Under the pieces are notes generated by a model. It saw only the letters and a program-made list of their open reading frames with translations, was not told the DNA's origin and made no database searches. A DNA stretch of 64,000 nucleotides, from IMG/VR virus record IMGVR_UViG_3300027985_001053; one strand, written 5' to 3'. Below are positions 11,480 to 42,829 of the stretch, piece by piece. Numbering within the stretch: position 1 is the stretch's first letter; each line of letters begins with the position of its first letter. Position numbers and translations under genes: made by a program. The stretch comes from a virus. Its lineage: Duplodnaviria; Heunggongvirae; Uroviricota; Caudoviricetes.

Positions 11480-11790
11480 CGTAATCTCCTTGCTTAGATA
11501 CATTACCTTGAAATAGGCCATAAAGTCAACTAAGTTAAATTAAAAGCGTATTGTACTTTTAAAAATATTATGCTATCCTATCTAAATAAAGGAAATGATA
11601 CAATATGAAACATAAAGAGTCTGAAGGTCACAAACGTCAGGTAATAGGAAATAAAGTTTGGGTTTGTGATTACAGGTTTAAGAGACCTAGTATTTTCCCC
11701 TAGGACAAGATAGATATTGAAAAACTACAAAAAGAGCATAGTGAACAGAGAATATTAAATGACATTAGGTCTAAAAATTAAGGAGACAAT

Positions 11791-19612: not shown

Positions 19613-19644
19613 TTAAAATTAAGATGACGACAAAAGAGGATAAT

Positions 19645-22096: not shown

Positions 22097-22858
22097 ATGG
22101 AATATACTTTAGAAGAACTAAATAAAATGATGGAAGAGAATGATGGAAACTTAAGTTTATATAATACTCCGATTAAATCATTACCAGAAGGGTTAAAGGT
22201 TGGAGGTTGGTTAGATTTAAGAAATACCCCAATTAAATCGTTACCAGAAGGATTAACAGTTGGAGGATATTTAGATTTAGAAAATACTGAAATTGAATCT
22301 TTACCAGAAGGATTAACCGTTGGAGGATATTTAGCTTTAAGGTATGCTCCAATTACAACGCTACCAGAAGATTTAAAAGTTGGAGGTACCATATTTAGGG
22401 ATTTACCTGAAAATGAACTCAATTATACAAAACTTAAACAAGGTGATTATGTTAAAGATGAATATCTATATGCCGATGAAATCTTAACTCACATTAAAGC
22501 TAAAAAATCTTTTGATAAGTACACATATTTTATTGGTAAATTTAAAGATAAAAACGTACTTTATGATGGAACTTATTATGCTCACTGTAAAAACATCAAA
22601 CAAGGAATTAAGGATCTTAGCTTCAAACATGCTAAAGATAGAAGAATTGAACAATACAGAAATCTCAAGCTAACAAGTATTCTATCTTTTGAAGAATCAA
22701 AAACAATGTATCGAGTTTTAACTGGAGCATGTAGGCAAGGAACTGAAAGCTTTATTAGTAACTTAAAAACAATAAAAGATCAGTATACAGTACAGGAATT
22801 ACTAGATCTAACTGTTAATCAATATGGGCATGAAACTTTTAAGAAGTTTTTTAGTTAA
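22097..22858 (+). CDS. LRR-family protein (4 repeats plus C-terminal domain)
   Basis: MEYTLEELNKMM leader; C-terminal YTYFIGKFKDKNVLYDGTYYAHCKNIKQG...TGACRQGTESF. Confidence 0.6.
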   Translation: MEYTLEELNKMMEENDGNLSLYNTPIKSLPEGLKVGGWLDLRNTPIKSLPEGLTVGGYLDLENTEIESLPEGLTVGGYLALRYAPITTLPEDLKVGGTIFRDLPENELNYTKLKQGDYVKDEYLYADEILTHIKAKKSFDKYTYFIGKFKDKNVLYDGTYYAHCKNIKQGIKDLSFKHAKDRRIEQYRNLKLTSILSFEESKTMYRVLTGACRQGTESFISNLKTIKDQYTVQELLDLTVNQYGHETFKKFFS

Positions 22859-22943: not shown

Positions 22944-23558
22944 ATGGAATATACTTTAGATGTGTTGAATAAAATGATGGAAGAGAATGATGGAGACTTA
23001 GATTTAAAACATACTGGGATTGAATCGTTACCAGAAGGGTTAACAGTTGGAGGATATTTAGATTTAAGCTATACTTCAATTACATCATTACCTAATGGGT
23101 TAACTGTTGGAGGATGGTTAGATTTAAGAAATACTCAAATTACAACACTACCAGAAGGGTTAACGGTTGGAGGTAGCGTATATTTAAGATATACTCAAAT
23201 TACATCGTTACCTAAAGGATTAACGGTTGGAGGAACCTTAGATTTAGAAGGTACTACAATTACATCGTTACCAAAAGGATTAACCGTTGAAGGAAGCTTA
23301 TATTTAGACTATTCTCGAATAACTTCATTACCAGAAGGGTTAACTGTTGGAGGTTGGTTAGATTTAAGTTATGCTCCAATTGAATCGTTACCAGAAGGGT
23401 TAACTGTTGGAGAAATCTTATATTTAGAAGGTACTAAAATAACATCGTTACCACAAGATTTAAAAGTTGGTGATAAAATCTACGGAGATTTACCAAAGAA
23501 GGAACTACACTGCACAAAACTCCAACAGGACGATTATATTGCATTTGAATACCTATAA
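22944..23558 (+). CDS. LRR-family protein (8 repeats), C-terminal domain deleted
   Basis: ends ...YIAFEYL*; the following 23559..23600 encodes a remnant LAPVKSKKFFS* of the family C-terminus. Confidence 0.55.
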   Translation: MEYTLDVLNKMMEENDGDLDLKHTGIESLPEGLTVGGYLDLSYTSITSLPNGLTVGGWLDLRNTQITTLPEGLTVGGSVYLRYTQITSLPKGLTVGGTLDLEGTTITSLPKGLTVEGSLYLDYSRITSLPEGLTVGGWLDLSYAPIESLPEGLTVGEILYLEGTKITSLPQDLKVGDKIYGDLPKKELHCTKLQQDDYIAFEYL

Positions 23559-27443: not shown

Positions 27444-29165
27444 ATGGAATATACTTTAGAAGAATTAAATAGAATGATGAAAGATAATGATGGAAACTTA
27501 GATTTAAGACATACTAAAATTACATCACTGCCTAAAGGATTAACAGTTGGAGGTAACTTATATTTAAGAAATACTCAAATTACCTCGTTACCAGGAGATT
27601 TAATTGTTGGAGGAGACTTAGATTTAAGTTATACTCCAATCACATCGTTACCAGGAGATTTAATTGTTGGAGGAGACTTAGATTTAAGTTATACTCCAAT
27701 CACATCGTTACCAGACGATTTAATTGTTGGAGGAGACTTAGATTTAAGTTATACTCCAATCACATCGTTACCAGACGATTTAATTGTTGGAGGTAGCTTA
27801 TATTTAAGCAATACTCAAATTAAATTATTACCAAAAGGATTGAAGGTTGGAGGTGGGGTAGATTTAAGATATGCTCCGATTAAATCATTACCAGAAGACT
27901 TATCTGTTGGAAGTAGCTTAGATTTAAGTCGTACTCAAATTAAATCATTACCAGAAGGGTTAAAGGTTGGAGGTTGGTTAGATTTAAGATATGCTCCAAT
28001 TAAATCGTTACCAGAAGAGTTAATGGTGAAAGGTAGTTTATATTTAGAAAATACTCAAGTTACCTCGTTACCAGAAGGGTTCATGGTTAGAGGTAGCTTA
28101 TATTTAAGTCATACTCAAATCACATCGTTACCAAAAGGGTTAACGGTTGGAGGAGACATAGATTTAAGATATGCTCCAATTACATCGTTACCAGAAGGGT
28201 TAACCGTTGGTGGTAATTTAGACTTAGAAGGTACTAAAATTACCTCGTTACCAGAAGGGTTAACTGTTGGAGGTTGGCTAGATTTAAGTCATACTCAAAT
28301 CACATCGTTACCAAAAGGGTTAACGGTTGGAGGAGACATAGATTTAAGCGTTACTCCGATTACAACACTACCAGAAAGGTTAACGGTTGGAAGAAATCTA
28401 GATTTTAGATATACTAAAATTACCTCGTTACCAGAAGGGTTAACTGTTGGAGGTTGGCTAGATTTAAGAAATACTCAAATTACATCATTGCCTAAAAGGT
28501 TAACTGTTGGAGGATATTTAGATTTAAGTTCTACTCAAATTACATCGTTACCTGAAGGATTAACCGTTGGAGGTAACTTATATTTAGAAGGTACTAAAAT
28601 CACATCGTTACCGAAAGGGTTAACGGTTGGAGGATATTTAGCTTTAAGTAATACTCCAATTAAATCGTTATCAATAGATTTAAAAGTTGGAGGTACCATA
28701 TTTAGCGATTTACCTAAAAATAAAGTCAAATATACAAAACTTCAACAAGGTGACTATAGTGAAGCTGACTATCTGTATGCAGATGGAATCTTAACTCATA
28801 TTAAAGCTAAAAAATATTTTGATAAATATACATATTTTATTGGAGAATTTAAAGATAAAAATGTACTTTATGATGGAACTTATTATGTTCACTGTAAAAA
28901 CATTAAGCAAGGAATTGAGGATCTTAACTTCAAACATGCTAAAGATAGAGGGTCTGATCACTACAAAAATCTAAAATTATCCAGTATTCTATCTTTTGAA
29001 GAATCTAAAACGATGTACAGGATTTTAACCGGTGCGTGTAGACAAGGTACTGAAAGTTTTATTGAAAATTTGAAAATAATAAAAGAACAGTATACCATCC
29101 AAGAATTAATAGATCTAACTGTTAATCAATACGGTTATGAAACTTTTAAGAAGTTTTTTAGTTAA
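27444..29165 (+). CDS. LRR-family protein, long form (20 consecutive 20-residue repeats plus C-terminal domain)
   Basis: repeat consensus LDLxxTxITSLPEGLTVGGx; C-terminal domain shared with the 19645 and 22097 genes. Confidence 0.65.
   Translation: MEYTLEELNRMMKDNDGNLDLRHTKITSLPKGLTVGGNLYLRNTQITSLPGDLIVGGDLDLSYTPITSLPGDLIVGGDLDLSYTPITSLPDDLIVGGDLDLSYTPITSLPDDLIVGGSLYLSNTQIKLLPKGLKVGGGVDLRYAPIKSLPEDLSVGSSLDLSRTQIKSLPEGLKVGGWLDLRYAPIKSLPEELMVKGSLYLENTQVTSLPEGFMVRGSLYLSHTQITSLPKGLTVGGDIDLRYAPITSLPEGLTVGGNLDLEGTKITSLPEGLTVGGWLDLSHTQITSLPKGLTVGGDIDLSVTPITTLPERLTVGRNLDFRYTKITSLPEGLTVGGWLDLRNTQITSLPKRLTVGGYLDLSSTQITSLPEGLTVGGNLYLEGTKITSLPKGLTVGGYLALSNTPIKSLSIDLKVGGTIFSDLPKNKVKYTKLQQGDYSEADYLYADGILTHIKAKKYFDKYTYFIGEFKDKNVLYDGTYYVHCKNIKQGIEDLNFKHAKDRGSDHYKNLKLSSILSFEESKTMYRILTGACRQGTESFIENLKIIKEQYTIQELIDLTVNQYGYETFKKFFS
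27591..27770 (+). repeat. three perfect or near-perfect tandem 60-bp DNA repeats inside the LRR gene
   Basis: ccaggagatttaattgttggaggagacttagatttaagttatactccaatcacatcgtta, three copies. Confidence 0.85.
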
Positions 29166-29200
29166 CCCTAGGAAGTTATATGCAATAAAGAGGAGAAAAC

Positions 29201-29503
29201 ATGAAAATATGTACACTGTGCGAGTATGAAATAGAGGAATCATCTGATAGCTGCCTAAAGAAAGGTAAATGTCCGGTGTGTGGATCTGAGGAACTTGTAG
29301 GTACAGAAGATTTATTCGATGTTAATAAAGGAATAAACTTTATCTGTTCAAAAGCAAGTAATAAAGATGATAGATTGCAGCTTATTAAAACTTTACTTAA
29401 AGGACTTTCTATCACTAAGAAAACGGAGATAGTTCAAGGAAATTGCTTTGAAGGGTTCACATCAATGTATGATAAACATATTATTTTAAAGGAATTTTGT
29501 TGA
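29201..29503 (+). CDS. zinc-ribbon protein
   Basis: CTLCEYE...CPVCGSEE. Confidence 0.4.
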   Translation: MKICTLCEYEIEESSDSCLKKGKCPVCGSEELVGTEDLFDVNKGINFICSKASNKDDRLQLIKTLLKGLSITKKTEIVQGNCFEGFTSMYDKHIILKEFC

Positions 29504-29549
29504 CACTAATACCTATTAATGGTAATATTTAATAGTTGAAGGAGAAAAT

Positions 29550-30236
29550 ATGGAAAAATTTTTAAACAAACATAATGTTGATGCAGATGTAGATTGTATA
29601 GCTGAAGGAGTTTACTCTGTTAGAGTAAATAATAAAGACCTGGACCTAGTAGATGTAGAAAATTGTTTGCGAGAGCAACCCGATAAAGTTTACTTAGACT
29701 ATTCATTGCTTGCAAAACAAGAGATTCAAAAAACTTATGCAAGAATAATTGAAAGAGTTCAAGATGTTGAGATAGGTAAAACTTTAGAGGTTGAAAAGTT
29801 CAGTATCTTTAAAAAAGATGATAATCTTTTTGAAATTAAAACTAAGAATATTAAAACCCCAAGACTGTCATCTATAAATAACTTACCTTATGCACTTCAC
29901 GAGCTTCATTTACAGGCTTTGAGAGATAAAATAGTTCTTTTCCCTGGAACCGAGGGAAATGATGTAGATAGAACAGCATTCGCTTTTAGCGAAGTATATG
30001 CTAATCTGAAAAAACTTGTAAGACATCATCTTAGAATAGGAACCAGCAATGCTGAGTATGACTTACTCTCTGATCTATTGTATGTTGCTACAGGTTATGA
30101 AGAAGAGGATGAAGCTCTAATGTTATTTAATCTATATTTGGACAGAATACTAAATGAAGCGGATGAGCTAATGTCACCTGTTTTGAAAACTGTTTTAGTA
30201 AAGTTTATTAATAAAATATTTAGGAGTGCTGAATGA
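29550..30236 (+). CDS. hypothetical protein
   Basis: 228 aa; RBS gaaggagaa. Confidence 0.45.
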   Translation: MEKFLNKHNVDADVDCIAEGVYSVRVNNKDLDLVDVENCLREQPDKVYLDYSLLAKQEIQKTYARIIERVQDVEIGKTLEVEKFSIFKKDDNLFEIKTKNIKTPRLSSINNLPYALHELHLQALRDKIVLFPGTEGNDVDRTAFAFSEVYANLKKLVRHHLRIGTSNAEYDLLSDLLYVATGYEEEDEALMLFNLYLDRILNEADELMSPVLKTVLVKFINKIFRSAE

Positions 30237-30601
30237 AAGTATATATTAACGAATATGGTCTAAGTTATTTACCTCTACATAGAGTATATGATGCTAAAGC
30301 TAAAAGACTTGTTCATGTAGATGAAAATCTTATAGATGATTTAATAAGTAGGTACGATATTCCAGCAAAAAAGAGATTTGGATTGTACCAGTTATCTAAA
30401 CAAGATTTTAATATTTGGGGTGCATTTTTTAATGGACTTCAACAGGTAGAGCTTATCAAAGCTGCCTTAGTATATCTTACAAAAGATGAAGAGGAAATTT
30501 TTAACGAAGCGTTTGACTGGGTAGATACTTTGGAAATACCTATGAGATGTTTAGAAAGATTGGAACAAATAAGAGGAGAAAGAAATGGAAAAATTAACTG
30601 A
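30233..30601 (+). CDS. hypothetical protein
   Basis: 122 aa, translationally coupled (ATGA). Confidence 0.45.
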   Translation: MKVYINEYGLSYLPLHRVYDAKAKRLVHVDENLIDDLISRYDIPAKKRFGLYQLSKQDFNIWGAFFNGLQQVELIKAALVYLTKDEEEIFNEAFDWVDTLEIPMRCLERLEQIRGERNGKIN

Positions 30602-31112
30602 AATAGAAAAAGTAAAGGATTTAGTATATCAAGGAAAATCTCAAAAAGAAATTGCTGAGATTTTAGGTAAAAGTCAAGTATTTATTGGAACATGTATATC
30701 AAGACTTAGAAAGTCTAAAAACTTTAATATACATTTTGCTCATGGCAGACATGTAAATAAAGGAAGACTAGAACTTGTAAGATTTTTTCACAAGTTTAAT
30801 ATGCTTCATGGATTTTTTCCTAAACAAGCTTGGGTGGCAAAACTTTGGGGAGTAAGTAGACAGGCTATTAACCAAGCGAACCCGAACAAAGGGGAGGAAA
30901 TAGGAAAGTTTGTTAGACTATCTGGGCCAGTATATATCTCAGACAGTTTTAATAAGTTTATACAAGATTACGCTGAGCTTTTTGGTTTTTCATGGGCAGA
31001 AGCTCTTAAAAGTTTTACACACAATGTAGATTTCTCAAAAATAAACTTTGAAGATTTAAAAAATTCTATGATTGAAAAAACTGAAAACGAGCTTGATCAA
31101 GATTTAAAATAA
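30585..31112 (+). CDS. HTH DNA-binding protein (sigma region-4-like helix-turn-helix)
   Basis: SQKEIAEILGKSQVFIGTCISRLRK. Confidence 0.4.
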   Translation: MEKLTEIEKVKDLVYQGKSQKEIAEILGKSQVFIGTCISRLRKSKNFNIHFAHGRHVNKGRLELVRFFHKFNMLHGFFPKQAWVAKLWGVSRQAINQANPNKGEEIGKFVRLSGPVYISDSFNKFIQDYAELFGFSWAEALKSFTHNVDFSKINFEDLKNSMIEKTENELDQDLK

Positions 31113-31132
31113 TTAGGGTATTCCCCCTAATT
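31111..31132. terminator. bidirectional hairpin aattaggg-tattc-ccctaatt between convergent genes
   Basis: 8-bp inverted repeat at the strand switch. Confidence 0.5.
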
Positions 31133-31135
31133 ATT

Positions 31136-31576
31136 TTAAAGATCACCTATAGCTGTTGTATTATTGATACTATCAATATTTTTAATAAACTTAATGGCAA
31201 AAGGTAAATCGTCTAAAGTATCAAGGAAATAAGTGTTATAGCATTTACTGGAGCCGTCTAACAAATCTTTTATAGCCTCAAAGCTTTTAATCTGATGCTT
31301 AGAAAATCCATCTAATTTAAAAAATATAATTGTGTTTTTAGGGGAATAAGCGGAATCAACTAATTCCGCTATTGAGTATACACCTGACATATCCTTTGTA
31401 ATAACAAAAAGATGCGTATCACACATTTCTTTTTCAATATCTTCTATGTTTTTAGCTTCTGGAGTCCAGTCATCTACTACTGGATTGAAAAAGTTAACTT
31501 TTTCTTTAATTAGTACAGGGATAACATCTTTACGATAATCATCCCCTGCTGTAGTTCCACCTAAAAATATTTTCAT
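31136..31576 (-). CDS. nucleoside 2-deoxyribosyltransferase-like protein (tentative)
   Basis: MKIFLGG... N-terminus and size typical of the phage NDT-like family. Confidence 0.35.
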   Translation of the reverse strand: MKIFLGGTTAGDDYRKDVIPVLIKEKVNFFNPVVDDWTPEAKNIEDIEKEMCDTHLFVITKDMSGVYSIAELVDSAYSPKNTIIFFKLDGFSKHQIKSFEAIKDLLDGSSKCYNTYFLDTLDDLPFAIKFIKNIDSINNTTAIGDL

Positions 31577-31750
31577 ACATGTCTCCTTAGATCCGAATTA
31601 GTGATTACAAAATCCGTAAAGGAACCATCATATGCCACAACTAATAGCTTATAGCTATTATTAGTTTCATCATAACTTTTTTCCTCTACAATATCTAGTA
31701 AAGGAAACATCTTCCTAATCTCAACTAAATTAAATCTCATGAAGATATAG

Positions 31751-33496
31751 TTATATTTTGAACTTATTTATTGTCTCATTTAAAGAAGAACTTACAGTAT
31801 TTAAATCCAATAAAGTATCTTCAATAACCTTTACCGAAGTAGTAATTTCATTAGTTCCTATAGCTACCTCTGTCATAGCATTAGCCACCTCTTCAGACTG
31901 AACAGTAGCTTTATCAATATCTTTTACAGAAGCATTTAAATTATCATTTAATGTTTGAATATTCTCGAGTAAAGTATATGACATATCTCTTAAATCTTTT
32001 ATAGCATTAGCTATCTCAGAAGTACTTGCGGAGGTTTCTTGTAAACCATTATCTATCATGTTAAAAGCCTTGGAAGAGTTCTCCGAGGATGTTCGTATTT
32101 CATGGAAAATCTTAGATGACGATTTCTCTGAGGATTCAATAGCATGGATATCGTTCACAATCGTTTTTAAGGTAACTCCTATTGTTTTAGAATTATCTTT
32201 AGAGAAATCTGCCAGCTTCCGTATCTCTTCAGCAACTACAGCAAATCCTTTACCAACATTACCTGCATGAGCCGCTTCTATAGCAGCATTCATAGCTAAT
32301 ATATTAGTTCTTTGCGAAAGTTTAAATAACGTATCTACTATGGAAAATATTGTATCGGCTTTAGCTACTACAGAAGATACTAACCTAGAGTTTTCTTGTA
32401 TCTGTTTTTCTCCCAGGATGACAAGCTCTTTAAGTTTAAGCATCTCTTTAGATTCTTTAGAAACAACTCCTGAAATATCCATAGTAGATGAAAGCATTTC
32501 TCTAGTATTCGCTGAAATCTCATCAATTGCTGAGGAGTTATCTGTAATTAGGTCTACAAGGTTTTTTAAGTTATCGACTACCCCTAAGATACTACTTCTA
32601 GAAGAAATATTTAGATCTTTTAAAGAATGCATTAAAGATTCAACGCCTTTCGCATTTTGAGAGATTTCATAAACTGTTGCAGAAGTTTCAACAGTATTAG
32701 CAGCTAAAACATCTTGGGATGAGATTACATCGTCTACAGAGGAAACAACTTGCTTTACCAATAATTGTAAAGTCTCTATAAACTTATTAACGATACCTAT
32801 CAAGCTTCCTAACTCATCTTTTTTAGAATAAGCTATTCTATGAGCTAAATTAGCATCTACTGATAAAATATTATAGGCTTCGTTAGAAGCTTGGGATAAA
32901 GACTTGGTTGTTTTTGTAGTACTGTATATTATTGTAACCGCTATTACTATAAATGAAATGATTAGTAATACTATTATCGGAAATATAACTGAGTATATTT
33001 CTTTATTACTTTCATCTCTATAGGTTGAATAAACTACATAAGCATCTAAAGGAGCGTAATATCTAAATACAGCATCCTTTATGAAGTAATCGTCGGCACC
33101 TCCTGGTTTAGTATAATAATATGAAAAACTACCTTCTGTCTGCCCAAGCATTAAGCTTAAAATGGACACTTTTTCAACAAGATCTTTAAATACTACATAT
33201 TGTCCTTCTTTAGTTCTATCAATATAAGCTAAAACTTTATGATCTGATGTTAATACAAATGGATAAGAAGAAGAGTCTGTTTCAAAAATAATATCACTAA
33301 AATCTTGTAACGATAGTTTACCTGCATCTACCTTTTTTAAACTTGCAACTACACTGGATAATGTCGATTCACTTATTAGCTTATTATGTTTTGTTAGTGT
33401 AGATTTTACAGAATTATACACAGCTCCTCCTAAGAGAAGGAATCCTAAAAAAATTACAGATAATGTGCTAACTAATAATTTATTTCTAATAGTCAT
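31751..33496 (-). CDS. methyl-accepting chemotaxis protein-like transmembrane chemoreceptor
   Basis: N-terminal TM, about 140-aa periplasmic domain, second TM ([20 protein letters not shown]), then MCP signalling tip [36 protein letters not shown]. Confidence 0.75.
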
Positions 33497-33505
33497 AATA
33501 ATCTC

Positions 33506-34369
33506 CTATATAGCCATGGGTGCTTTGATAGCTGGCCATGAATCATAGTTCCTTAAAGTAATATCGGTCATTTTAAAATCAAAGATATTAGTTATCTCTG
33601 GATTTAAAATTACTTGTGGACCAAGCTTAGATTCACGAGTTAATTGCTCCTTAACTTGATCAATATGATTAGAGTAGATATGAGCATCCCCTATCGTATG
33701 TATGAACTCATAAGGTGTATACCCAGTTACTTGAGCTACCATCATAAGAAGCAAAGAATATGATGCAATATTAAAAGGAATTCCTAAAAAGGCGTCTCCT
33801 GATCTTTGGTACAGTTGAAGAGAGAGCTTATTATTAGCTACATAGAATTGAAACATCGTGTGACAAGGAGGTAAAGCCATTGATTCTAGCTCTCCTACAT
33901 TCCAGGCACTAACAATATGTCTTCTGGAATCCGGTGAAGTCTTTATAGAATGGATAACTTGAGAAATCTGATCTATAAACTTATTTTTGGAGGATACCCA
34001 CTGTCTCCATTGTGCTCCATAAACATTACCTAAATTTTTAACAGTATCTGTATTTTCATAACCAAGAGATTTGCCTTGGTTATCAGCATTAGCCGTCCAA
34101 ATAGTAGACTTGCCTACTAAATCTTTTCTATCTTTTCCATAATATATTTCAGCAAGTCTCCGTTCATCGGTAGAACCTTCTAAAAACCAAAGAAGTTCTG
34201 ACACAATGGCCTTCATACCCAATTTTTTAGTAGTTACTAAAGGAAACCTTTTTTCAAGATTAAATCTCATTTGATAACCGAAAGTACTCAAAGTTCCTGT
34301 ACCGGTTCTATCTTCTTTTAATACACCATTATCTATGATGTGCTGCAATAACTCTAAATATTGTGTCAT
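33506..34369 (-). CDS. thyA: thymidylate synthase
   Basis: [35 protein letters not shown]. Confidence 0.9.
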
Positions 34370-34399
34370 TCTATCTCCTCTTTAATGATATTAAGTACA

Positions 34400-34861
34400 T
34401 TACGCATCTGGAAGGTATTTGTACCTATAAATCTGGTTATTAGCAATTGACTTAGCATAAAGTACTGTTACTAAAGGCATTTCTTCCAGAGGTTTATATG
34501 GTCCTGCATTGTATGCCATAGCTGCTCTTTCAACATCTCCGAACTTCCTAAGCAATGTACTAAAGTAAGCTACCCCTATTTGAATATTTATAAAAGGGTC
34601 TCTTGCATCAAAGTACTGCCTAGAATACCCTAATTCTTTTAATAAGTCTACATCGAAATAAGTAGTTTTAAAGAAATAGAAATATCTACTACTTAATTGC
34701 ATATAACCAATGTCTACATAACCTCTACCATAGTATCTGTCTGGTGAGAAATCATTAAATCCTTTGGCAGTACCCCATCCTGATTCTAAAGCAATCAAGC
34801 TAACTACATCTAAAAGAGGTACTTCATAATGTTTACAGATCGCTCTGGTAAAGTCTCGCAA
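34400..34861 (-). CDS. lytic transglycosylase (SLT domain)
   Basis: IALESGW (catalytic ES), GYMQL, AYNAGPY. Confidence 0.75.
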   Translation of the reverse strand: MRDFTRAICKHYEVPLLDVVSLIALESGWGTAKGFNDFSPDRYYGRGYVDIGYMQLSSRYFYFFKTTYFDVDLLKELGYSRQYFDARDPFINIQIGVAYFSTLLRKFGDVERAAMAYNAGPYKPLEEMPLVTVLYAKSIANNQIYRYKYLPDA

Positions 34862-35081
34862 TTCTAAAGATACCTTGAACTCATCGAAGAAAGAATCTTC
34901 TAAAGAAAGATACTTGAGTTGAGGTAAATCCTCTTTAAAAGTGATCTTAGATTCTTCTAGAATAAATATATCTTCTGTTGAAACGGGATTCTGATTGAAA
35001 GTGTTTAATAAATCATACTTTAAGTTTCTACTACTCGAGCTCAGTAAAATAACTGAAATGGCTCCTAGAGTAATTTTTGAA

Positions 35082-35732
35082 TTAATCTTGAAAATAATAC
35101 TTTAACTCCTTATTACTAGCGATTAAATTAAAAGCTCTTTTACGAATGGCATCCATCTGGTTCCAAACCTGTGCTCGACTAACTCCAGTACTACGCCCTA
35201 TTTCATCGTAAGTATAACCTTCTAAAACTTTAGATAAAATAGTTGATTGCTTCTGTGTAATAATACCATTAAGAAGATTATAAAGATTAGTTTCCATATA
35301 TTTCTTTTCATTATGTAGAATCTCTTCAACATGAGACATATAATGGCTGGGGATTTCACAAGCGGTATATTCAGATTCAGAATATACCTCTCTAGAGAAA
35401 AGTTCTTTGGTATGAGTAACTCTTTTAGCTCCTCGAGTTTTATTAAAAGACTCAGGACAATGATTGTAGGAAGTAAGTTCTTCCATCTTATAGGCAGATA
35501 AATGAAAAGAATAGCTGTACTCGTAAGACTTGTGACGTATATATCGTCGTAGAGCCTCATACAACGATCTTTTGCTGGAAGTAGTACCTTCTATATACTT
35601 ATGCTCTGAAATCAGTTCTATGAGCTTATTTACCCCATCCTGAAAGAGATCTTCTCGTACATCAGGGGATATAGTCTTGTACCTAGATAAAATCTTATAG
35701 ATATAAGGTACATATTTATCAAAAAGTGTCAT
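35082..35732 (-). CDS. sigma-70 family RNA polymerase sigma factor
   Basis: region 2 EDLFQDGVNKLIE; region 4 HTH LSKVLEGYTYDEIGRSTGVSRAQVWNQMDAIRKRAF. Confidence 0.6.
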   Translation of the reverse strand: MTLFDKYVPYIYKILSRYKTISPDVREDLFQDGVNKLIELISEHKYIEGTTSSKRSLYEALRRYIRHKSYEYSYSFHLSAYKMEELTSYNHCPESFNKTRGAKRVTHTKELFSREVYSESEYTACEIPSHYMSHVEEILHNEKKYMETNLYNLLNGIITQKQSTILSKVLEGYTYDEIGRSTGVSRAQVWNQMDAIRKRAFNLIASNKELKYYFQD

Positions 35733-35792
35733 GAAGGAATACTACTAAAAGTAGATATTAAAGTCAATTGAAATTTAAAAAGACCTAATTTC

Positions 35793-36110
35793 TTAGGTCT
35801 TGTACACATTACTATCAAACGGAATCTTTTTAAACTCGCTAGACGCTATCATCATTTTTAGCGTATAAACGGTTATAAACTCATCTCGCTGATTATCATA
35901 TAATAGAAAAAGGTCTTTATCTTGGTACTTTAAATACCACCAACTTTTTAGATTAGACTCTTTTCTAACAAACTGTCCTTTTAACTTGAACTCTTCAAGA
36001 AGATCTCGTAAGCCAAATCTATTTAACCGGATATTAAATCTCGCATTCAATCTCTTTTTAAAATGCTTACGAAGATCATAGAGCTTACTTTTAGAGTAGC
36101 CCTGTTTCAT
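35793..36110 (-). CDS. hypothetical basic protein
   Basis: 105 aa ORF. Confidence 0.4.
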   Translation of the reverse strand: MKQGYSKSKLYDLRKHFKKRLNARFNIRLNRFGLRDLLEEFKLKGQFVRKESNLKSWWYLKYQDKDLFLLYDNQRDEFITVYTLKMMIASSEFKKIPFDSNVYKT

Positions 36111-36112
36111 TT

Positions 36113-36517
36113 TTAGAAGGTTCCGTTTTTAAGTTTTTCTAAGGATACTCCTGATAAATAACTTGGGATAGGACGCCCATTAGGTAAGGTCTTCACTTCT
36201 GGAAGAGGTTTTTTCTCTCGTCCAGGCTTCCCTGAAAATCTAGTGACTCGTTTCGGTTCTTTATCTAAAGAAACTTTCTTCTCGTCCAACGGTTTTGGAG
36301 CTTCTACCTTTTCTGATTCAGGAGCTTCTTCTTTAGTAGAAGGTTGCTCTTGATTATCAGGTTCTACAGTAGATTGTTCAGGAACTTCTTTCTTGTCTGG
36401 TTTTGGAGCTTCTACCTTGTCTGGTGCAGGAGCGTCTTTCTTGTCTTTTGATACTTGAGGTTTATCAATTATTTCTTCTTTAGTATCCGCAGGTTTTGTA
36501 GTTTTTTCTTTAGCCAT
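36113..36517 (-). CDS. Lys/Glu/Pro-rich repeat protein
   Basis: repeated (K)VEAPKP units. Confidence 0.4.
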   Translation of the reverse strand: MAKEKTTKPADTKEEIIDKPQVSKDKKDAPAPDKVEAPKPDKKEVPEQSTVEPDNQEQPSTKEEAPESEKVEAPKPLDEKKVSLDKEPKRVTRFSGKPGREKKPLPEVKTLPNGRPIPSYLSGVSLEKLKNGTF

Positions 36518-36527
36518 ATTTCCTCTC

Positions 36528-36809
36528 TTATTTTTTAATACTATCTAAAATAGATATAACTTGTTTCTCTTTTGCTAGGACTACTTTTGTAGAAGTACCT
36601 ATCAATTCTATAATTTTCCTAAAAGCAACATGGATAAAATCATCTCTTGTCACATAGGGAAACTCTCCGGAAAAAGTTTCTTGTTTAGAAAGTCTATCAA
36701 CAATTAAAGTTGCATAAACTTTTCGTCCAATTTTCGCTTTATCAATTAATATCATATTAGGGTTAACTGTTATAGTAAACTCCTTATATGTGAATATTGC
36801 GTCTGCCAT
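36528..36809 (-). CDS. hypothetical protein (baseplate module)
   Basis: 93 aa ORF. Confidence 0.4.
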   Translation of the reverse strand: MADAIFTYKEFTITVNPNMILIDKAKIGRKVYATLIVDRLSKQETFSGEFPYVTRDDFIHVAFRKIIELIGTSTKVVLAKEKQVISILDSIKK

Positions 36810-36854
36810 TATTTACTCCTTACGATTATAGTTAAGGATAAAGTTAAGCTAAAC

Positions 36855-37625
36855 CTAGGGAATCTCAGGGGCAGGCAAATCGAATAAGTTTTGAAGTCTT
36901 AATAAAATTGCAGCCATAGATGCTACAGTTGCTGGGGAAGCAGCTTGAGCTGCCGCAGATCCTGTAGTCGTTAATCCTTGAATATCTTTTACAATTTGTG
37001 AGAGTATATCTGCTAAACTCTCCACAGTATTACTTAGTGTTACTAAACCCGTAGGAGATAGTATAAATTCAGAAGAAGAGTTTTCCATACTAACCTCCCC
37101 GTCGGAACCAAGTACTAAACTTCCTTTAGCGTTTGTAATTTTTACTTCTTTCTCAACTGTAGAAACTTCAATTTCCCCAGTACCTTTAAAATATACATAA
37201 GTTTTAGCATCTTTTAATAGAACACTATCACCGTTAGCTTTGTTACGGAACTCAATATCACCATTATCGTAAAGTTTAATAAATATAGAAGCTTTATCAA
37301 AATCCGATAAACCCGATACATTTGAAAGCTTATCTGTTAAAACATTAAGGTTAAAAGCTTCCGGTAAACTAAAGAAAGGAATGTAATAACATGGGTCAAA
37401 CCTACCATCGTCCTCATATAAAAGCCAAACCTTATCCCCTGGAACACAGGAGTCATAGGTTATATTAGTATCAGAAACATATCCCCCATGAAAAGGAATC
37501 GCAAAAGGTAGCATATCTTCAGATACATCAAAATGCTCTGTTATAGCTCTAATTTTTAACCGCCCCCAAGCTTCAGGGTCTTCTGCCGAAACTATAGTAG
37601 CAACAGTTATCTTTAAATCAATCAT
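36855..37625 (-). CDS. baseplate spike/hub protein (gpV/gp45-like, tentative)
   Basis: N-terminal ATIVSAEDPEAWGRLKIRA resembles the phage V spike OB domain. Confidence 0.4.
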   Translation of the reverse strand: MIDLKITVATIVSAEDPEAWGRLKIRAITEHFDVSEDMLPFAIPFHGGYVSDTNITYDSCVPGDKVWLLYEDDGRFDPCYYIPFFSLPEAFNLNVLTDKLSNVSGLSDFDKASIFIKLYDNGDIEFRNKANGDSVLLKDAKTYVYFKGTGEIEVSTVEKEVKITNAKGSLVLGSDGEVSMENSSSEFILSPTGLVTLSNTVESLADILSQIVKDIQGLTTTGSAAAQAASPATVASMAAILLRLQNLFDLPAPEIP

Positions 37626-38854
37626 TCATATCTTCCTAAGTATTCTAAAAGTCCATAGCTATCAGATAGAGAAGGTTCAAAAGAATCACTAGATATCACT
37701 AGAGTAGTTGTAACCATAGGATTTTCTTGTAAGCCAAGATGTCTATGATTAACACTATCTACTATCCAAACTCTTGAGGGAGTTTTAGACTCTGGAGATG
37801 TTTTTCCTGAAATCATAGGTGATAAAGACCCGTCCATCTTATAAGATTTCGATTGTAAAATAATCCTATGACCTACCTCAATATCTGTATTTAGATTGAT
37901 AGTTAGAACAAGTCGTTGCATTGCACAAAGTACTTTTTGAGAGTTAATTTGACTACCTTTTAAAATATATTCTTCAGCAGAATTCTTAGGAGCTTTTATT
38001 TTCTCTCTATTAGTTCCATAAGAAGATTTAAACATAGAGAGATGTCTTCTCGAAGGAGAAGGATTGTTATTTAAACATGTTCTTGAAAAATTAACAGGCT
38101 CCCCTGTTTTTAAATCAATTCTAGTATCAGATTTACTAAAGCTATCTCTTGATTGTTCCATTCTAGGAGTAAGTACCTCCAAGTTTATCACATGATTAAA
38201 TAATGATTTCTGTTTGTGTATGTTCTCAAGGAACAAAGTATGCAAAGGACTTTGTTCTAAAAGCTCTTTTCTATGTTTAATATTCAACTTATTATCAAAT
38301 CCAACCCAAACATAATAAGGAGTATCATTAGATACCCTGGAATATAGTTTGGATTTTAAGTCTTGTTCAATAAAATCTAAAGAAGATTTTCCTGCTTGAT
38401 AAAAAGTTAAAATACCGTCAGAAGGAAGCCCTACATTAGTAGCTGTAAACAAACCTTTAGAAACTTCTTGAATTATGTTACTGACAGCCCCTCGATAGGC
38501 TTTAGAAGAAGGCTCTTGTTTAACAAAAGCTGGATGTACTAAATCTATATCAAAAGTTCCTCTTATCACTCCGGAGCCATCATAGGAATTCATTGTTATC
38601 AATCCTGCAATAGCATCCAAACTAGCCGTATTCTTACAAGGTTCATTTTTAAAAGAACTTTTTACGCTTATTCCCTGAGTAAACTGTAACTTTTCATAAA
38701 CTACTCCGGTAACATCTTTAAAAGAAACACTTCCATAAGGTAATAAGTTATAAATACTGTTACTTATTGACATATTAAAAGATGTGGCACCTTCAGATGA
38801 AAACTGATTAGTTCCTGCCATACTTAGATTTAAATCATACGTTCTATACTTCAC
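37622..38854 (-). CDS. baseplate/tail structural protein
   Basis: 410 aa; overlaps its neighbour by 4 nt. Confidence 0.4.
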   Translation of the reverse strand: MKYRTYDLNLSMAGTNQFSSEGATSFNMSISNSIYNLLPYGSVSFKDVTGVVYEKLQFTQGISVKSSFKNEPCKNTASLDAIAGLITMNSYDGSGVIRGTFDIDLVHPAFVKQEPSSKAYRGAVSNIIQEVSKGLFTATNVGLPSDGILTFYQAGKSSLDFIEQDLKSKLYSRVSNDTPYYVWVGFDNKLNIKHRKELLEQSPLHTLFLENIHKQKSLFNHVINLEVLTPRMEQSRDSFSKSDTRIDLKTGEPVNFSRTCLNNNPSPSRRHLSMFKSSYGTNREKIKAPKNSAEEYILKGSQINSQKVLCAMQRLVLTINLNTDIEVGHRIILQSKSYKMDGSLSPMISGKTSPESKTPSRVWIVDSVNHRHLGLQENPMVTTTLVISSDSFEPSLSDSYGLLEYLGRYE

Positions 38855-38857
38855 AAG

Positions 38858-39169
38858 TTATCCTTTAATCGAGTTTAACTGAAAAAACTCATCCATATCA
38901 GAAGCCTCGTATAATCTTATAACTGTACCTACTTTCACCGCATGAATATCTATAATATTATTTATGAGTAGAATAAACGACTCATAATAGGTTGTACCAT
39001 AAGTATTATATATAAAAATATCAAAACGTCGAATATCCCTAGACGTTAAAGCATACTCACTTATAGTTTTTTTAGGATTAAATGTATTCCGATTAAATGA
39101 GTAAGGGTTAAAATAAGCTAATCCTTCTTTATTTAGTACCTCGGAGGCATCCAACATATTATATAACAT
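38858..39169 (-). CDS. hypothetical structural protein
   Basis: 103 aa ORF. Confidence 0.35.
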   Translation of the reverse strand: MLYNMLDASEVLNKEGLAYFNPYSFNRNTFNPKKTISEYALTSRDIRRFDIFIYNTYGTTYYESFILLINNIIDIHAVKVGTVIRLYEASDMDEFFQLNSIKG

Positions 39170-39177
39170 TTTAACTC

Positions 39178-40014
39178 CTACCTAGTAATCTGTTGTCTAA
39201 TTTCATTGACCTTATTAGGGCCACCTGTAAAAGCTATTTTTGCATTAGAAAAATCATCTATCATTTGTTTTGTACAGGCTGTTGTAGTCTGAATATCTAA
39301 TCTAACTTTAGACCAAATAGGCATACCATACTGATCCGAATCCCCACTAATAATAGGTTCCGCTCTAGTAACAATTACATCATCTAAATACAAGAACTTC
39401 CCTATGGATATCTTATAAGTTTCAAAAGTGGTTTTTTCTCTAATAGACGATGTAACCTCATTTATAGTTTTCAAATCGTATTCCTGCTCCTCTAAATAAG
39501 TTTTTACAGTATTCGCAAAAGTAAAAGATGCTGATGGTCCAGGAGGTAACAACAGACCATCTATTTCATTTGGAACTACTAACTTCATAAGTTCTTTAGT
39601 AGGGTTCATTACTTGTTTCTCTGCGTTAAAGTCCATATAGAGAGCTACCGTGATAGAGAAGGATAAAGGACTGGTATTTTCCCAAATCTGAAGACTTTGA
39701 GAAGCAAACTTTCCTTCTAGAGTCGTACCTGAGAAAGCTGTTCTAATAATATCTTTATTAATACCTGTTAGCTTATTAAGAGCTCCGGAAATAATACCTT
39801 GGGAAGGATTCATTAAAGAAGAGAACGTTGAGCTAACGTTCAAAACTAAATCTTCACCAAGAATAATCACATCCTCTGGAAGAACTAAAGCTGACTTCGA
39901 GATATCTCCGTCAGGTACTTTCCAAAGTTTAACTTGTTTACCTAAAGGTACTTTAGGTCTATTTACTTGAGCATACACACTTGGTGCTGTAGCTATATTT
40001 CGTATAAAATCCAT
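39178..40014 (-). CDS. tail/baseplate protein
   Basis: 278 aa, immediately downstream of the tape measure gene. Confidence 0.4.
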   Translation of the reverse strand: MDFIRNIATAPSVYAQVNRPKVPLGKQVKLWKVPDGDISKSALVLPEDVIILGEDLVLNVSSTFSSLMNPSQGIISGALNKLTGINKDIIRTAFSGTTLEGKFASQSLQIWENTSPLSFSITVALYMDFNAEKQVMNPTKELMKLVVPNEIDGLLLPPGPSASFTFANTVKTYLEEQEYDLKTINEVTSSIREKTTFETYKISIGKFLYLDDVIVTRAEPIISGDSDQYGMPIWSKVRLDIQTTTACTKQMIDDFSNAKIAFTGGPNKVNEIRQQITR

Positions 40015-40035
40015 TTAAAATCTCCTTACCTAGAG

Positions 40036-42810
40036 TTATTGAGGAATATGAGCATTCCGAACAGCCTCTGAATAGTTTGCTCCTTGAAAGTTGTTGATAG
40101 TCTGAATTACATTAACATCCTTAGCTGATTGCGAATCATCTCTTCCGGGAAGGGTCCCTGAGCTTTTAGAATCCATTACCTTTTTAGCATAATCAGCCAA
40201 CTTTCTCGATGTATCATAATCATCAGGATTCGCATATTGTATAGCAGTATTAAAACTCTCTCTATTTACATTTGCATATCTTCCTTGGAAAATGGCATAA
40301 GCCTGATCTGCAAGATTCCAAAAAGCAGTGTTGTTAAGATCTTGTAGCTGTGAAGAAAGCATAGTCTGCTCACGAATAACGGGGTCAGGTGTTTTCTTAC
40401 TGTTCGGGATAAACATATCTATCACAGCTTTTGTTTTTTCTCTGAAAGATAGGTTCTCATCTAAAGACCCAACCTTCTCAGAATACTCATCCCACGTTAA
40501 CTCTGGAAGATTTTTATTACGGTCTGATTGTCGTCTATACTCCAAAAAGCTTTCCATATTTGAAGCTATGTTAGAGTCCTCACTATCAAAGGCTTGTAAG
40601 AATCGGGCCTTTTCATCCTTATCCACTATATCTAAGCTTGAAGCTAATGTTTGACCCATAAAACCTTTATTGAACTCTTTAAAAGAATTCATTGTTGTTT
40701 CAAAAAAAGTTTTTATAGTATCTAATGTAAAATTACCTGTGGAGATATCATCAATTACATCAATAAGAGGTCCGAACAATTTATCTAAAACAGTTCTTGT
40801 AGCACGATTTATAGAACCAATTAAATTTCCAAATAAAGCTCCTATTTTATAATCAATAGATTCTTCCGATTTTAAGATGTCTCCAAAATCTAAAGTCTCT
40901 ACGAAAGCAACTCCTCCAGCAGTCACGGATTCAAATACGGTTTTAATAATGGAGTACCCTGCATCTCCTAAAATAGCGAAAAGACTAGTATCACCTTCCC
41001 CTGATGTCATTTGGCCCCAAACTGTACTCAAGCCCTCTTGCAAATTATCGAAAGATTTAGCAAAGTACTCACCTCCGAAGTATCCTACAACCGACCCGAA
41101 AGCAGCTCCTATAAGAGCACCTGCTATAGTACCTACTCCTGGAGCAATTTTAGACCCAAGCCCTGCTCCGGTCAAAGCCCATTTAACAGCTTGACTAGAC
41201 GATCCTTCAGAAGACCCGAACTCTCCTGTACCGGCTAAAGCACCTCCTACAGCAGCACTTATAGAGGAGGTACCCCATTCACCACTTTTGAAGAAACCCA
41301 TAACGCCATCATAGACTGTCCAAATAACCCCTGCAACAAGAGTTTTAGCACTTACCTTCTTAAGCAATCCTGTAACCGCACCTGTTTTACCAAGAAGACC
41401 TTGTTTACCAAGAAGACTTTTTAGCACTCCAGCACCTACAAGACCTGATAACACGCTTCCTTTAGAATCAGGAGATTTCTTACCTTCTGAAGATTTAATA
41501 CCGTTATTAAACAAGTCATATAACATGGTAAATCCAGCACCTATTAGACCCATACCTGAAACAGTATCTCTACTAGGAGTCACTCTTCCATTGTATAAGA
41601 CATCTATTGAGGTTTGCAGAGGAATATCATCTGTTAAGCCCCCTATTCTAGGAGCAGTAGCAATATCAACATCAAGATCTTTCATGAAGTTCCCTAGATA
41701 AGAGCTATCAAACAAAGTCTTATCAGGAGTATAAAAATCCCCTGTATCAAAAAAATCATTCATCTTAGGTATAGAAGGGTCTTCATAAAGCTTTTTTCTA
41801 ATAAGAGTAACTTCATCAAGAAGACTATTAGACACTGATGAGCTATCTTCTTCTGTAGGGAAGATAAGGTCATCTGGCTGTTTAAGATTAGCAACGTAAT
41901 CCTCTGGAAAATTAGCTCGTAGTACCTCCTCTTTGATATAATCGAAAAGAGAATCTGTAGAAGTAACAGTCATTTCTAATTCTTCTTCAACAATAGGAGG
42001 AAGATCTTTTAATTTTCGAGATTTTGTAGGATTCTTCAAGATATCTATTAAATCACGTAAAGGAACTGTAACAGAGTTAAAGATATCTTGAAGCTCTTTA
42101 GATGGAAACTCTCCCGAAGACTTTAACTGGCGTGTAAGATCTTTCGTTACACTTTTTAGCATATTTACTAGAGACCCTGTATCATCATCTTTTCGATAAG
42201 ATGAAATTAAAAGTTCAGAGTTTAGGTTGTCTAAAGAGGCTATAATTTTATTAAAACTTGGGTCTTTAGAAAGGTTAAGATTCCAAAGACTTGGAATCTC
42301 TGCATTTATAAAATCAAAAGCTTCAGAAGCCGAAGATGCTAAATTTTGTATAGCATCTACAGATTGACTTAAATGCTCTTTAACTTCATATTTCTTGTAT
42401 ACAGGGTCTTCTACAACACCATTAATCTTTTGAAGTTCTTTAAGAATATTATCCAGATAGATAAGGGATTCAACATTATCCTTAGCAAGCTGTTCAGAGG
42501 AAGCTTCTAACATATCCTTTGTACTTGACAATATGGCTTTATTGCTTTCCAGAACATCTTGAACGGCACTGATATTAGAAGCAACCAAATCCTGATATTC
42601 TATACTCTCTACTATATTTTTGTTAATAGTATTAGTAGTTAAACCTACGGAAGCTACTTTTAAATTAAGGGTTTGGAGGGTTTTAATAATACGTTCATCA
42701 TCTCTTTTTAAAGACTTTCTAAAAAGATCAAGGACTTCCTTTGGAAAAGCCCCTGATGGTTGTTTATCTGGTGTATTTATTAAGGGCTTTCCCTTGGATT
42801 CATCACTCAT
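40036..42810 (-). CDS. tail tape measure protein
   Basis: 924 aa; Gly-rich hydrophobic segments (GLIGAGFTMLYDLF, GLVGAGVLKSLLGKQGLLGKTGAVTGLL); between chaperone-like and baseplate genes. Confidence 0.6.
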   Translation of the reverse strand: MSDESKGKPLINTPDKQPSGAFPKEVLDLFRKSLKRDDERIIKTLQTLNLKVASVGLTTNTINKNIVESIEYQDLVASNISAVQDVLESNKAILSSTKDMLEASSEQLAKDNVESLIYLDNILKELQKINGVVEDPVYKKYEVKEHLSQSVDAIQNLASSASEAFDFINAEIPSLWNLNLSKDPSFNKIIASLDNLNSELLISSYRKDDDTGSLVNMLKSVTKDLTRQLKSSGEFPSKELQDIFNSVTVPLRDLIDILKNPTKSRKLKDLPPIVEEELEMTVTSTDSLFDYIKEEVLRANFPEDYVANLKQPDDLIFPTEEDSSSVSNSLLDEVTLIRKKLYEDPSIPKMNDFFDTGDFYTPDKTLFDSSYLGNFMKDLDVDIATAPRIGGLTDDIPLQTSIDVLYNGRVTPSRDTVSGMGLIGAGFTMLYDLFNNGIKSSEGKKSPDSKGSVLSGLVGAGVLKSLLGKQGLLGKTGAVTGLLKKVSAKTLVAGVIWTVYDGVMGFFKSGEWGTSSISAAVGGALAGTGEFGSSEGSSSQAVKWALTGAGLGSKIAPGVGTIAGALIGAAFGSVVGYFGGEYFAKSFDNLQEGLSTVWGQMTSGEGDTSLFAILGDAGYSIIKTVFESVTAGGVAFVETLDFGDILKSEESIDYKIGALFGNLIGSINRATRTVLDKLFGPLIDVIDDISTGNFTLDTIKTFFETTMNSFKEFNKGFMGQTLASSLDIVDKDEKARFLQAFDSEDSNIASNMESFLEYRRQSDRNKNLPELTWDEYSEKVGSLDENLSFREKTKAVIDMFIPNSKKTPDPVIREQTMLSSQLQDLNNTAFWNLADQAYAIFQGRYANVNRESFNTAIQYANPDDYDTSRKLADYAKKVMDSKSSGTLPGRDDSQSAKDVNVIQTINNFQGANYSEAVRNAHIPQ

Positions 42811-42829
42811 ACTAATATAGTTATTATCC

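Follow-up and report, generated by a model that had tools for sequence, protein, structure and literature searches.

Chemotaxis is the best-understood bacterial signalling pathway, and a chemoreceptor gene in a phage genome raises the question of whether phages steer infected cells. We analysed such a gene, which encodes a methyl-accepting chemotaxis protein (MCP) of 581 amino acids (aa), in a 64,000-nucleotide stretch of a virus of the Caudoviricetes (IMG/VR record IMGVR_UViG_3300027985_001053; the whole stretch is called the window below). The closest described systems are the spirochaete receptors of the 48-heptad (48H) class, which belong to the F2 systems of Treponema, Brachyspira and Spirochaetia. 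The class mcp.48H co-evolves with CheB and CheR of class F2 (10.1101/2022.05.07.491037). F2 systems occur almost exclusively in Spirochaetota, and Brachyspirae combine F7 and F2 (PMC7666581). The phage receptor and the spirochaete receptors are identical in the length of the C-terminal arm (C-arm) of the signalling hairpin (169 residues) and in the distance from the DExG motif to the hairpin tip (186 residues). They also have in common a 25-residue tip sequence, the ending ...FK[VTI] and a Cache-type periplasmic sensor. In contrast to the spirochaete receptors, the phage copy has a diverged HAMP domain, few Glu/Gln pairs and 23–31% identity in the cytoplasmic part, and its sensor is a compact single Cache, whereas many of the relatives have a double Cache.

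The closest solved structure by sequence is TM1143 of Thermotoga maritima (PDB 2CH7, 3JA6), which contains a homologous antiparallel hairpin (E=1e-17, residues 274–563). TM1143 is a receptor of class 44H, and the arms of the phage receptor are two heptads longer on each side. As for the sensor, the same fold between two transmembrane (TM) helices is found in the sCache_2 sensors TlpB (3UB6-9), the carboxylate-sensing 5G4Y and Adeh_3718 (4K08). The phage sensor is 12–19% identical to them and lies below the Pfam gathering cut-off, and the likeness is one of fold, from which no ligand can be transferred.

Phage MCPs as such are already known. The prior record consists of PHROG 8572, a family of unknown function that already groups phage MCPs, and of an entry in a table of a preprint about ammonia-oxidiser phages. 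Within the literature open to our search, we came across neither functional nor systematic work on chemoreceptors encoded by viruses. The first-pass annotation of this DNA had implied that a phage-borne receptor is exceptional; such receptors are less unusual than that, as PHROG 8572 and the further phage lineages described below illustrate. The new elements here are a highly divergent phage MCP, a different receptor in a sister phage and a class-level signal of the host. Outside phages, chemoreceptor-like proteins encoded on mobile DNA include TcpI and AcfB, from the pathogenicity island of Vibrio cholerae, which are presumed to retune host taxis. They differ from the present case in lying on a genomic island of a cultured pathogen and not in a virulent-looking phage, and in receptor class and host.

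The receptor gene, its architecture and its class

The MCP open reading frame (ORF) is uninterrupted. Its product matches the Pfam family MCPsignal (PF00015) over residues 362–504 with 86.1 bits against a cut-off of 34.6 (E=3e-24), and a PHROGs profile search gave a match to phrog_8572 over residues 157–543 (E=5e-28). With NCBIfam, only MCP equivalogs far below threshold were found. The GC content of the gene (0.313) is close to the mean of the genes of this genome (0.326 ± 0.031), the GC content at third codon positions is 0.201, and the codon usage ranks 6th closest to the genome pool among 53 genes. The exact protein is on record from one 129.7-kb contig only. A 22-kb contig from an independent Logan assembly (SRR7216773) matches the window with 100% identity over 14,451 bp (29046–43496), including both junctions of the MCP gene. 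Because of this identical second assembly, the genome-typical composition and a ribosome-binding site that overlaps the stop codon of thyA, we reject the objection that the gene is chimeric or misassembled, and the possible disruption of the ORF raised in the first-pass annotation was not found. These results support a complete receptor encoded by a real phage and not an assembly artefact, and this receptor is apparently functional. The amelioration of codon usage, the identity of at most 31% to relatives and the overlap of the Shine-Dalgarno sequence with the thyA stop codon further point to long residence in the phage.

The first-pass annotation had also described two TM helices, a periplasmic domain of about 140 aa and a canonical 31-residue tip. 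Hydropathy analysis bears this out, with TM helices at about residues 5–27 and 166–192 and a stretch of about 138–140 aa between them, and the tip is located at residues 399–429. The features of the receptor, with the evidence for each, are as follows (AF2, AlphaFold2):

31751..33496, minus strand: chemoreceptor (MCP) gene, 581 aa, intact (ATG-start ORF, Pfam MCPsignal, phrog_8572, full-length AF2 model)
33416..33484, minus strand: TM1, about residues 5–27 (Kyte-Doolittle 19-residue windows above 1.6; helix 3–57 in the model)
33002..33415, minus strand: periplasmic single-Cache (sCache_2-like) sensor, residues ~28–165 (sub-threshold Pfam, AF2, Foldseek)
32921..33001, minus strand: TM2, about residues 166–192 (hydropathy up to 3.18; helix 160–211 in the model)
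32765..32920, minus strand: diverged HAMP-like linker, residues 193–244 (length and register, model)
31754..32764, minus strand: 48-heptad hairpin with N-arm 245–412, U-turn 410–414 and C-arm 413–581 (arm counts, alignment, model)
32210..32302, minus strand: hairpin tip, residues 399–429, CheA/CheW docking region (alignment)

To count the arms, we took N413 as the tip residue, the counterpart of E391 in the tip of E. coli Tsr (RAGEQGRGF). The C-arm then contains 169 residues, or 24 heptads. A symmetric N-terminal arm (168 residues) begins at residue 245, and a HAMP-sized remainder of 52 residues (193–244) is left after TM2. In nearly all homologues examined, the C-arm has 169–171 residues, the DExG motif of HAMP lies 186 residues before the tip, and the protein ends in ...FK[VTI]. 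The phage DELG is at position 227, exactly 186 residues from the tip. The full-length AF2 model (predicted local distance difference test, pLDDT, 77) has the canonical topology, in which TM2 continues into AS1 up to residue 211 and a connector (212–227) leads to the hairpin, formed by a helix at 228–409, a turn at 410–414 and a helix at 415–576. A helix-connector-helix of ~50 residues, the arrangement of a HAMP domain, thus directly follows TM2 in the model (helix 160–211, loop 212–227, helix from 228 onward).

The whole cytoplasmic part, 389 residues, aligns to the homologues without insertions or deletions. In this ungapped comparison, the phage receptor keeps 35 of the 38 columns that are at least 90% conserved in the family, and the three changes are swaps of I and L. 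Tip columns N403–G412, G415, G417–A422 and others are invariant in the receptor alignment. Divergence is even, each subregion lying at 0.64–0.87 of the family norm. Prolines are absent, the hydrophobic pattern at heptad positions a and d is kept in the tip and in the methylation helices, and G362 (Tsr G340) is kept as well. This pattern of divergence is consistent with a fast-evolving but constrained receptor and not with a decaying one.

MiST has class-specific MCP hidden Markov models (PMC6943060). We assigned the class by arm-length count and alignment according to the scheme of Alexander and Zhulin. By this measure the receptor is predicted to belong to class 48H, with 24 heptads in each arm and no insertion or deletion relative to members of the class. 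In a survey of tips, one genome per GTDB species was used, and the best 80 matches of at least 600 candidates were listed. All 30 receptors with an AAHAG tip among these best 80 came from Spirochaetota, and all had a C-arm of at least 169 residues. The non-spirochaete matches among the best 80 had AARAG tips and arms of 134–168 residues, with one exception of 241 residues. The best GTDB match belonged to an uncultured Brachyspira metagenome-assembled genome, where it lies in an ordinary chromosomal context, and the named close homologues are overwhelmingly from Spirochaetota. Thus, the AAHAG tip, the arm lengths and the dominance of Spirochaetota among the homologues make the receptor spirochaete-type. 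Its highest cytoplasmic identity to any relative is 30.6% (range 23–31%), and the internal mean of the family is 32.5%. Other viral MCP copies have bacterial relatives at 51–57% cytoplasmic identity. The phage receptor is thus a long-branch, highly divergent member of the spirochaete type.

The sensor was assigned mainly by structure. The sequence match to sCache_2 (PF17200, residues 73–170) reached 23.0 bits, below the cut-off of 25.0 (E=8.6e-5). The AF2 model of residues 1–200 (pLDDT 86.2) consists of a long N-terminal helix and a five-stranded sheet, and the best Foldseek matches were H. pylori TlpB (3UB7), 5G4Y and Adeh_3718 (4K08), with a probability of 1.0 and E~1e-5. On the basis of this model we are confident in predicting a single Cache/PAS-like fold between the two TM helices. 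A search of viral folds in BFVD gave weak Cache/PAS matches only. The phage sensor aligns with the membrane-proximal module of double-Cache relatives, and when the isolated sensor was used as query in an exhaustive HMMER search, just 26 of 1.84 billion representatives matched. The best relative of the sensor, P0242 (598 aa), has the same compact architecture and is 29% identical from end to end (E=2e-72); it has a precomputed sCache_2 match, and its adjoining gene looks bacterial. We considered whether the compact sensor is a phage-specific reduction, as three of three phage receptors lack the distal module. This was ruled out, since the compact P0242 appears bacterial. The compact sensor thus seems to be rare and not phage-specific.

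Chemoreceptors in other phages

Sister phage contigs, L168 and L169, were reached through ThyA. Their synteny with the window extends from the tape-measure gene to thyA, with 27–57% protein identity across eight genes and 69% for ThyA in this comparison. The MCP of the sister phage is non-orthologous to the one in the window. It lies about 5 kb downstream of thyA (L168:15247–17292, plus strand; L169:9463–11508) and encodes a soluble protein of 681 aa without TM segments. The protein has an N-terminal 4Fe-4S and Fe-hydrogenase-like sensor, an ...ESAHAG... tip and a C-arm of about 128 residues, which corresponds to about 36H. Judging from these domains, it may be a redox- or H2-sensing receptor. 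Ballor et al. are said to have described, in 2012, hydrogenase-like H2 sensors fused to MCP domains in termite-gut treponemes.

An unrelated phage lineage carries syntenic 48H MCPs with sCache_2 sensors in different samples (L002:8001–9812 and L005:3426–5267), the sample of L005 and L006 being a South China Sea cold seep. These two receptors are 57% identical to each other and adjoin the gene of a major head protein (phrog_138, E~1e-32). P0003 and P0008, which lie on contigs of this lineage, are the 2nd and the 7th full-length homologues of the window's receptor by E-value. Further 48H receptors with AAHAG tips lie inside two low-GC, jumbo-sized viral contigs of IMG/VR, L087 (IMGVR_UViG_3300010167_000010, 329 kb) and L088 (IMGVR_UViG_3300006226_001702, 198 kb). 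They have sCache_3 or dCache-like sensors and 53% identical cytoplasmic domains, and their neighbour genes are mostly without Pfam domains. Among cultured phages, a complete receptor with the domains dCache_1-HAMP-MCPsignal (QAX96201.1; L166:2687–4519, equal to MK308674.1 207397–209229) occurs in the Vibrio jumbo phage vB_VmeM-Yong XC31, where it is annotated as hypothetical. This unannotated receptor offers a tractable experimental system.

Like the receptor in the window, these phage MCPs (PHROG 8572, XC31, L087, L088, L002/L005 and L168) are full-length and occur in large phage genomes, with no che genes nearby in the regions seen. Their annotations read hypothetical or unknown function. 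They differ from it in genomic position, in sensor (dCache_1, sCache_3 or Fe-hydrogenase-like) and in heptad class, as with the ~36H receptor of L168. We also considered a single viral MCP clade. This idea was ruled out, since the phage receptors do not cluster in the cytoplasmic domain, and independent captures follow from this.

Not every viral record with an MCP is informative. IMG/VR contains about 350 MCP relatives, many of which resemble host DNA at prophage edges. Matches to INPHARED "phages" such as AGRM01000003.1 and AFYI01000003.1 are plainly bacterial whole-genome shotgun (WGS) contigs. Microcystis phage MaAM05 was dropped as a precedent: its MCP-like gene is flanked by thiL, ispD and ruvA, neighbours that look bacterial and suggest bacterial sequence in this record (MW495066.1 16461–23015, L167).

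Taken with the sister phage and the unrelated lineages, the window shows repeated capture and retention of intact receptors by large phages. It is possible, and we propose it tentatively, that the carriage of chemoreceptors is a recurrent, selected strategy of large phages of motile bacteria, in which tip and length are matched to the host, the sensor is chosen by the phage, and the infected cell is navigated rather than deprived of motility. The fact that sister phages even swap receptors (a periplasmic Cache in the window, a cytoplasmic Fe-hydrogenase-like sensor in L168) is part of this proposal. If it is true, infection would alter where bacteria go and not just whether they survive, which would matter for phage spread, for the ecology of sediment and gut spirochaetes and for the way in which virocell behaviour is modelled. 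In addition, the heptad class and the tip signature of phage-borne receptors could help to predict hosts for uncultured phages.

Possible roles in the infected cell and the host

As the best explanation, we suggest, with a probability of roughly 55%, that the gene encodes a working transmembrane receptor that docks on the host CheA/CheW and biases the swimming of the infected cell. During infection, the receptor would insert into the inner membrane of the host and dimerise, and its tip would dock onto the CheA/CheW baseplate, where it would join or form signalling complexes of the host's type. The Cache module would sense a small ligand and so provide a phage-chosen input into flagellar motor control. 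The infected cell could then be steered to, or held in, places where phage yield or onward transmission is better. There is no che gene in the 64-kb window, so the receptor would have to use the CheA, CheW and CheY of the host. Adaptation may be poor because methylation motifs are few and the HAMP domain is diverged, and the resulting bias might be weaker in adaptation and more sustained than that of host receptors. Of the two roles raised in the first-pass annotation, a reprogramming of chemotaxis and a decoy, the first is the more likely: the invariant tip, the 389 aa without insertions or deletions and the Cache fold favour a working receptor over a pure decoy, and the recurrence of receptors across phages argues for selection.

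Several points weigh against a receptor that steers the cell. Its functional steps are all inferred from sequence. Only about half of the ~130-kb genome lies in the window, and phage-encoded partners are possible elsewhere. Pfam HAMP (PF00672) has no match at E<=0.01 in the phage receptor, whereas the homologues do match, and the phage receptor has substitutions at five conserved positions of this domain (P199S, G213V, D216N, T218A and F236V). The phage receptor has 0 strict methylation motifs (consensus [ASTG]2-x2-[EQ]2-x2-[ASTG]2), 1 relaxed motif (QETSAS, Q486/E487) and 4 E/Q pairs, against family medians of 1, 2 and 9, and its Glu and Gln content of 10.3% is below the family minimum of 11.3%. 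Finally, the phage ThyA belongs to a family of 287-aa proteins whose named members are all from Arcobacteraceae, with 64–70% identity. Receptors of different length classes sort into separate arrays (PMC6759762), and an Arcobacteraceae-like host might therefore mean a mismatch of length between the receptor and the arrays.

The two genes thus give different indications of the host. ThyA proteins of Arcobacteraceae are 78–99% identical among themselves, and the ThyA proteins of the phage and of the sister phage are about 70% identical. The sole Arcobacteraceae MCP examined, on a chromosome fragment (L171, GC 0.273), is a 36H receptor that ends in ...DWESF. From their sequences, thyA and the MCP gene, although adjacent, appear to come from different donors. 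Tetranucleotide usage was indecisive, with 0.64 for a Brachyspira fragment, 0.46 for Arcobacteraceae and ~0 for Treponema. We gave more weight to the MCP, because a receptor must fit the CheA/CheW lattice of its host and ThyA works in any cell. With this weighting, a low-GC spirochaete is favoured, and the host is most plausibly a low-GC, Brachyspira-like bacterium with spirochaete F2-type arrays. Brachyspirae would also accommodate the ~36H receptor of the sister phage. The first-pass annotation had expected the closest bacterial MCP to reveal the host. This succeeded at the level of class, with spirochaete-type 48H receptors at 26–31% identity, but did not pin the host down, since the Arcobacteraceae-like ThyA conflicts.

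The same peculiarities of HAMP and of the methylation region would fit a dominant-negative protein or decoy, which would dock on CheA/CheW through its tip without normal signalling or adaptation. It would jam or lock the array, with a constant bias to runs or reversals or a loss of taxis as the outcome, or titrate CheW or CheA, so that the cell is immobilised or de-tuned and not steered. The a/d hydrophobicity of the flexible bundle in the C-arm, 0.50 against 0.68 ± 0.07 in the family, points in this direction too, as would a 48H receptor mismatched to 36H arrays if the host is Arcobacteraceae-like. A decoy needs neither a folded ligand-binding Cache nor the exact 48H register, and both are retained. 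The lack of strict methylation sites extends to 24 of 117 bacterial homologues, and other phage receptors (P0003, L087, L088 and that of the Vibrio phage) have a canonical HAMP and a sensor. We consider a decoy the main rival explanation, though an unlikely one. A gene of lysogenic conversion or of a carrier state, through which a resident phage or prophage would equip its host for a new kind of taxis to the advantage of both, and not act in lytic takeover, is a less probable explanation. Temperate phages often carry such morons, the window encodes a Rha-like regulator (1033–1644), and many IMG/VR MCP matches lie on prophage-derived viral genomes, although many of these prophage-edge matches look like flanking host DNA. 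Among the window ORFs of about 135 aa or more there are no integrase, repressor or attachment features. Coupling to thyA and an upstream phage sigma factor are typical of lytic-cycle units, and RtcB, dUTPase, Dam and peptide deformylase give the genome the look of a large virulent myovirus.

It is very unlikely that the MCP scaffold has been re-used for a decision internal to the phage, with the Cache passing a cue to a phage partner (lysis timing or sigma control) and host chemotaxis left untouched. MCP-like proteins can feed non-motility (ACF) pathways, which supports such a role, as does the transcription unit common to the MCP and the phage sigma factor. The ACF class is listed among the chemosensory classes (PMC7666581). 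Against this role stand the window, which has no CheA-, CheW- or CheY-like gene, and the tip, which matches the consensus of the host family and shows no co-divergence with a private partner. A functionless passenger, or an artefact of chimeric assembly or host contamination, is hardly credible and has been largely refuted. Public phage records do hold contaminating bacterial MCPs (Salmonella WGS contigs in INPHARED, MaAM05), but here two assemblies are identical over 14.4 kb, the composition is phage-typical and the Shine-Dalgarno sequence overlaps the thyA stop. Moreover, the flanks are syntenic with the sister phage, and at ~70% divergence the gene still has an intact frame and conserved functional positions.

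The transcription unit and the phage genome

The MCP gene belongs to a unit of ~4.7 kb with the gene order sigma-SLT-thyA-MCP-orf55-ndt. The unit and its borders are as follows:

35780..35801, minus strand: terminator-like hairpin with a U-tract (motif scan; folding energy -10.9 kcal/mol, z=-2.9)
35082..35732, minus strand: sigma-70/ECF-like phage factor (ECF, extracytoplasmic function), first gene of the unit (phrog_1740, phrog_351; TIGR02937 43.4 against a cut-off of 42.9)
34400..34861, minus strand: SLT lytic transglycosylase-domain gene (Pfam SLT, E=2e-9; 31% identical to its L168 counterpart)
33506..34369, minus strand: thyA (thymidylate synthase), upstream neighbour of the MCP gene (Pfam, E=3e-108; NCBIfam equivalog)
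33502..33506, minus strand: Shine-Dalgarno sequence GGAGA, 5 nucleotides before the MCP ATG, overlapping the thyA stop codon (read from sequence)
31573..31740, minus strand: ORF of 55 aa between the MCP gene and ndt (ORF; called also in the independent assembly)
31136..31576, minus strand: ndt, nucleoside 2-deoxyribosyltransferase-like, last gene of the unit (Pfam Nuc_deoxyri_tr2, E=2e-9)
31101..31144, both strands: bidirectional hairpin of 16–18 bp (folding energies -17.4 and -18.5 kcal/mol, z=-5.1 and -4.5 on the two strands)

The hairpin at 35780–35801 divides the baseplate and tail genes from the phage sigma-factor gene. At 31101–31144, precisely where the plus-strand and minus-strand gene blocks converge, the second hairpin extends over the stop codons of both. 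It probably acts as a terminator in both directions, and the MCP transcript would end there. Since these two hairpins bound the unit, the MCP gene lies outside the structural operon. It had been placed inside a structural and late module by the first-pass annotation. The shared strand with the tail and head genes is correct, but the unit is separate and lies beyond the terminator-like hairpin. Likewise, thyA and the deoxyribosyltransferase-like gene do flank the MCP gene on the same strand as reported, but the 55-aa ORF had been missed. From the position of the Shine-Dalgarno sequence, the MCP gene is predicted to be translationally coupled to thyA.

A scan for sigma-70 promoters and terminators performed no better than on shuffled sequence. 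As promoter scores were at chance level, no promoter is claimed, and of the candidate terminators we retained just the two hairpins that stood up to folding controls. The 55-aa ORF had no family matches in the Pfam and PADLOC scans, and neither the MCP nor the adjoining genes had a meaningful match among the defence systems of PADLOC. In NCBIfam, the SLT-domain protein came closest to the family of the Borrelia flagellar-assembly lytic transglycosylase BB0259 (E=9e-8, far below cut-off), which can be taken as a faint second hint of a connection with spirochaetes.

By its gene content, the genome is that of a genuine myovirus-like phage, large and lytic-looking. Its main recognisable genes in the window are:

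45286–47142, minus strand: tail sheath
52002–54098, minus strand: large terminase
54172–55668, minus strand: major head protein
1033–1644: Rha-like regulator
11039–11521: peptide deformylase
12065–13051: radical-SAM enzyme
13075–14202: RtcB RNA ligase
50395–51273: SPFH/Band-7 protein
60711–61250: dUTPase
63162–63968: Dam methylase

Further structural genes on the minus strand encode a gp19-like tail tube, a 924-aa tape-measure-like protein and a T4-like portal. The phage is far from all cultured phages, with ~22% identity for the capsid protein and ~27% for the terminase. Megablast of the region 29000–37000 against 50,697 phage records gave no match, and tblastn against the same records gave only remote matches to the signalling domain, many of them in contaminated records. 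No match was obtained when IMG/VR was scanned with single-protein patterns of the MCP and of the capsid protein, and alignment-based scans of IMG/VR and of JGI metagenome contigs revealed no further relatives of the lineage. The search with the baseplate-region protein (37622–38854) returned the protein itself only. The window contains no tRNAs, and among its ORFs of at least about 135 aa there is no other chemotaxis or motility gene.

The plus strand carries five paralogous leucine-rich-repeat (LRR) proteins, encoded at 16743–17234, 19624–20484, 22097–22858, 22944–23558 and 27444–29165. They are 44–73% identical and variable in repeat number, and the largest has 573 aa. Three of the five have a common C-terminal domain of ~150 aa outside the repeats, and their 3' ends are ~86% identical in DNA. 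Judged by these features, the paralogues seem to form a family in diversification, with members that act as effectors or in contact with the host.

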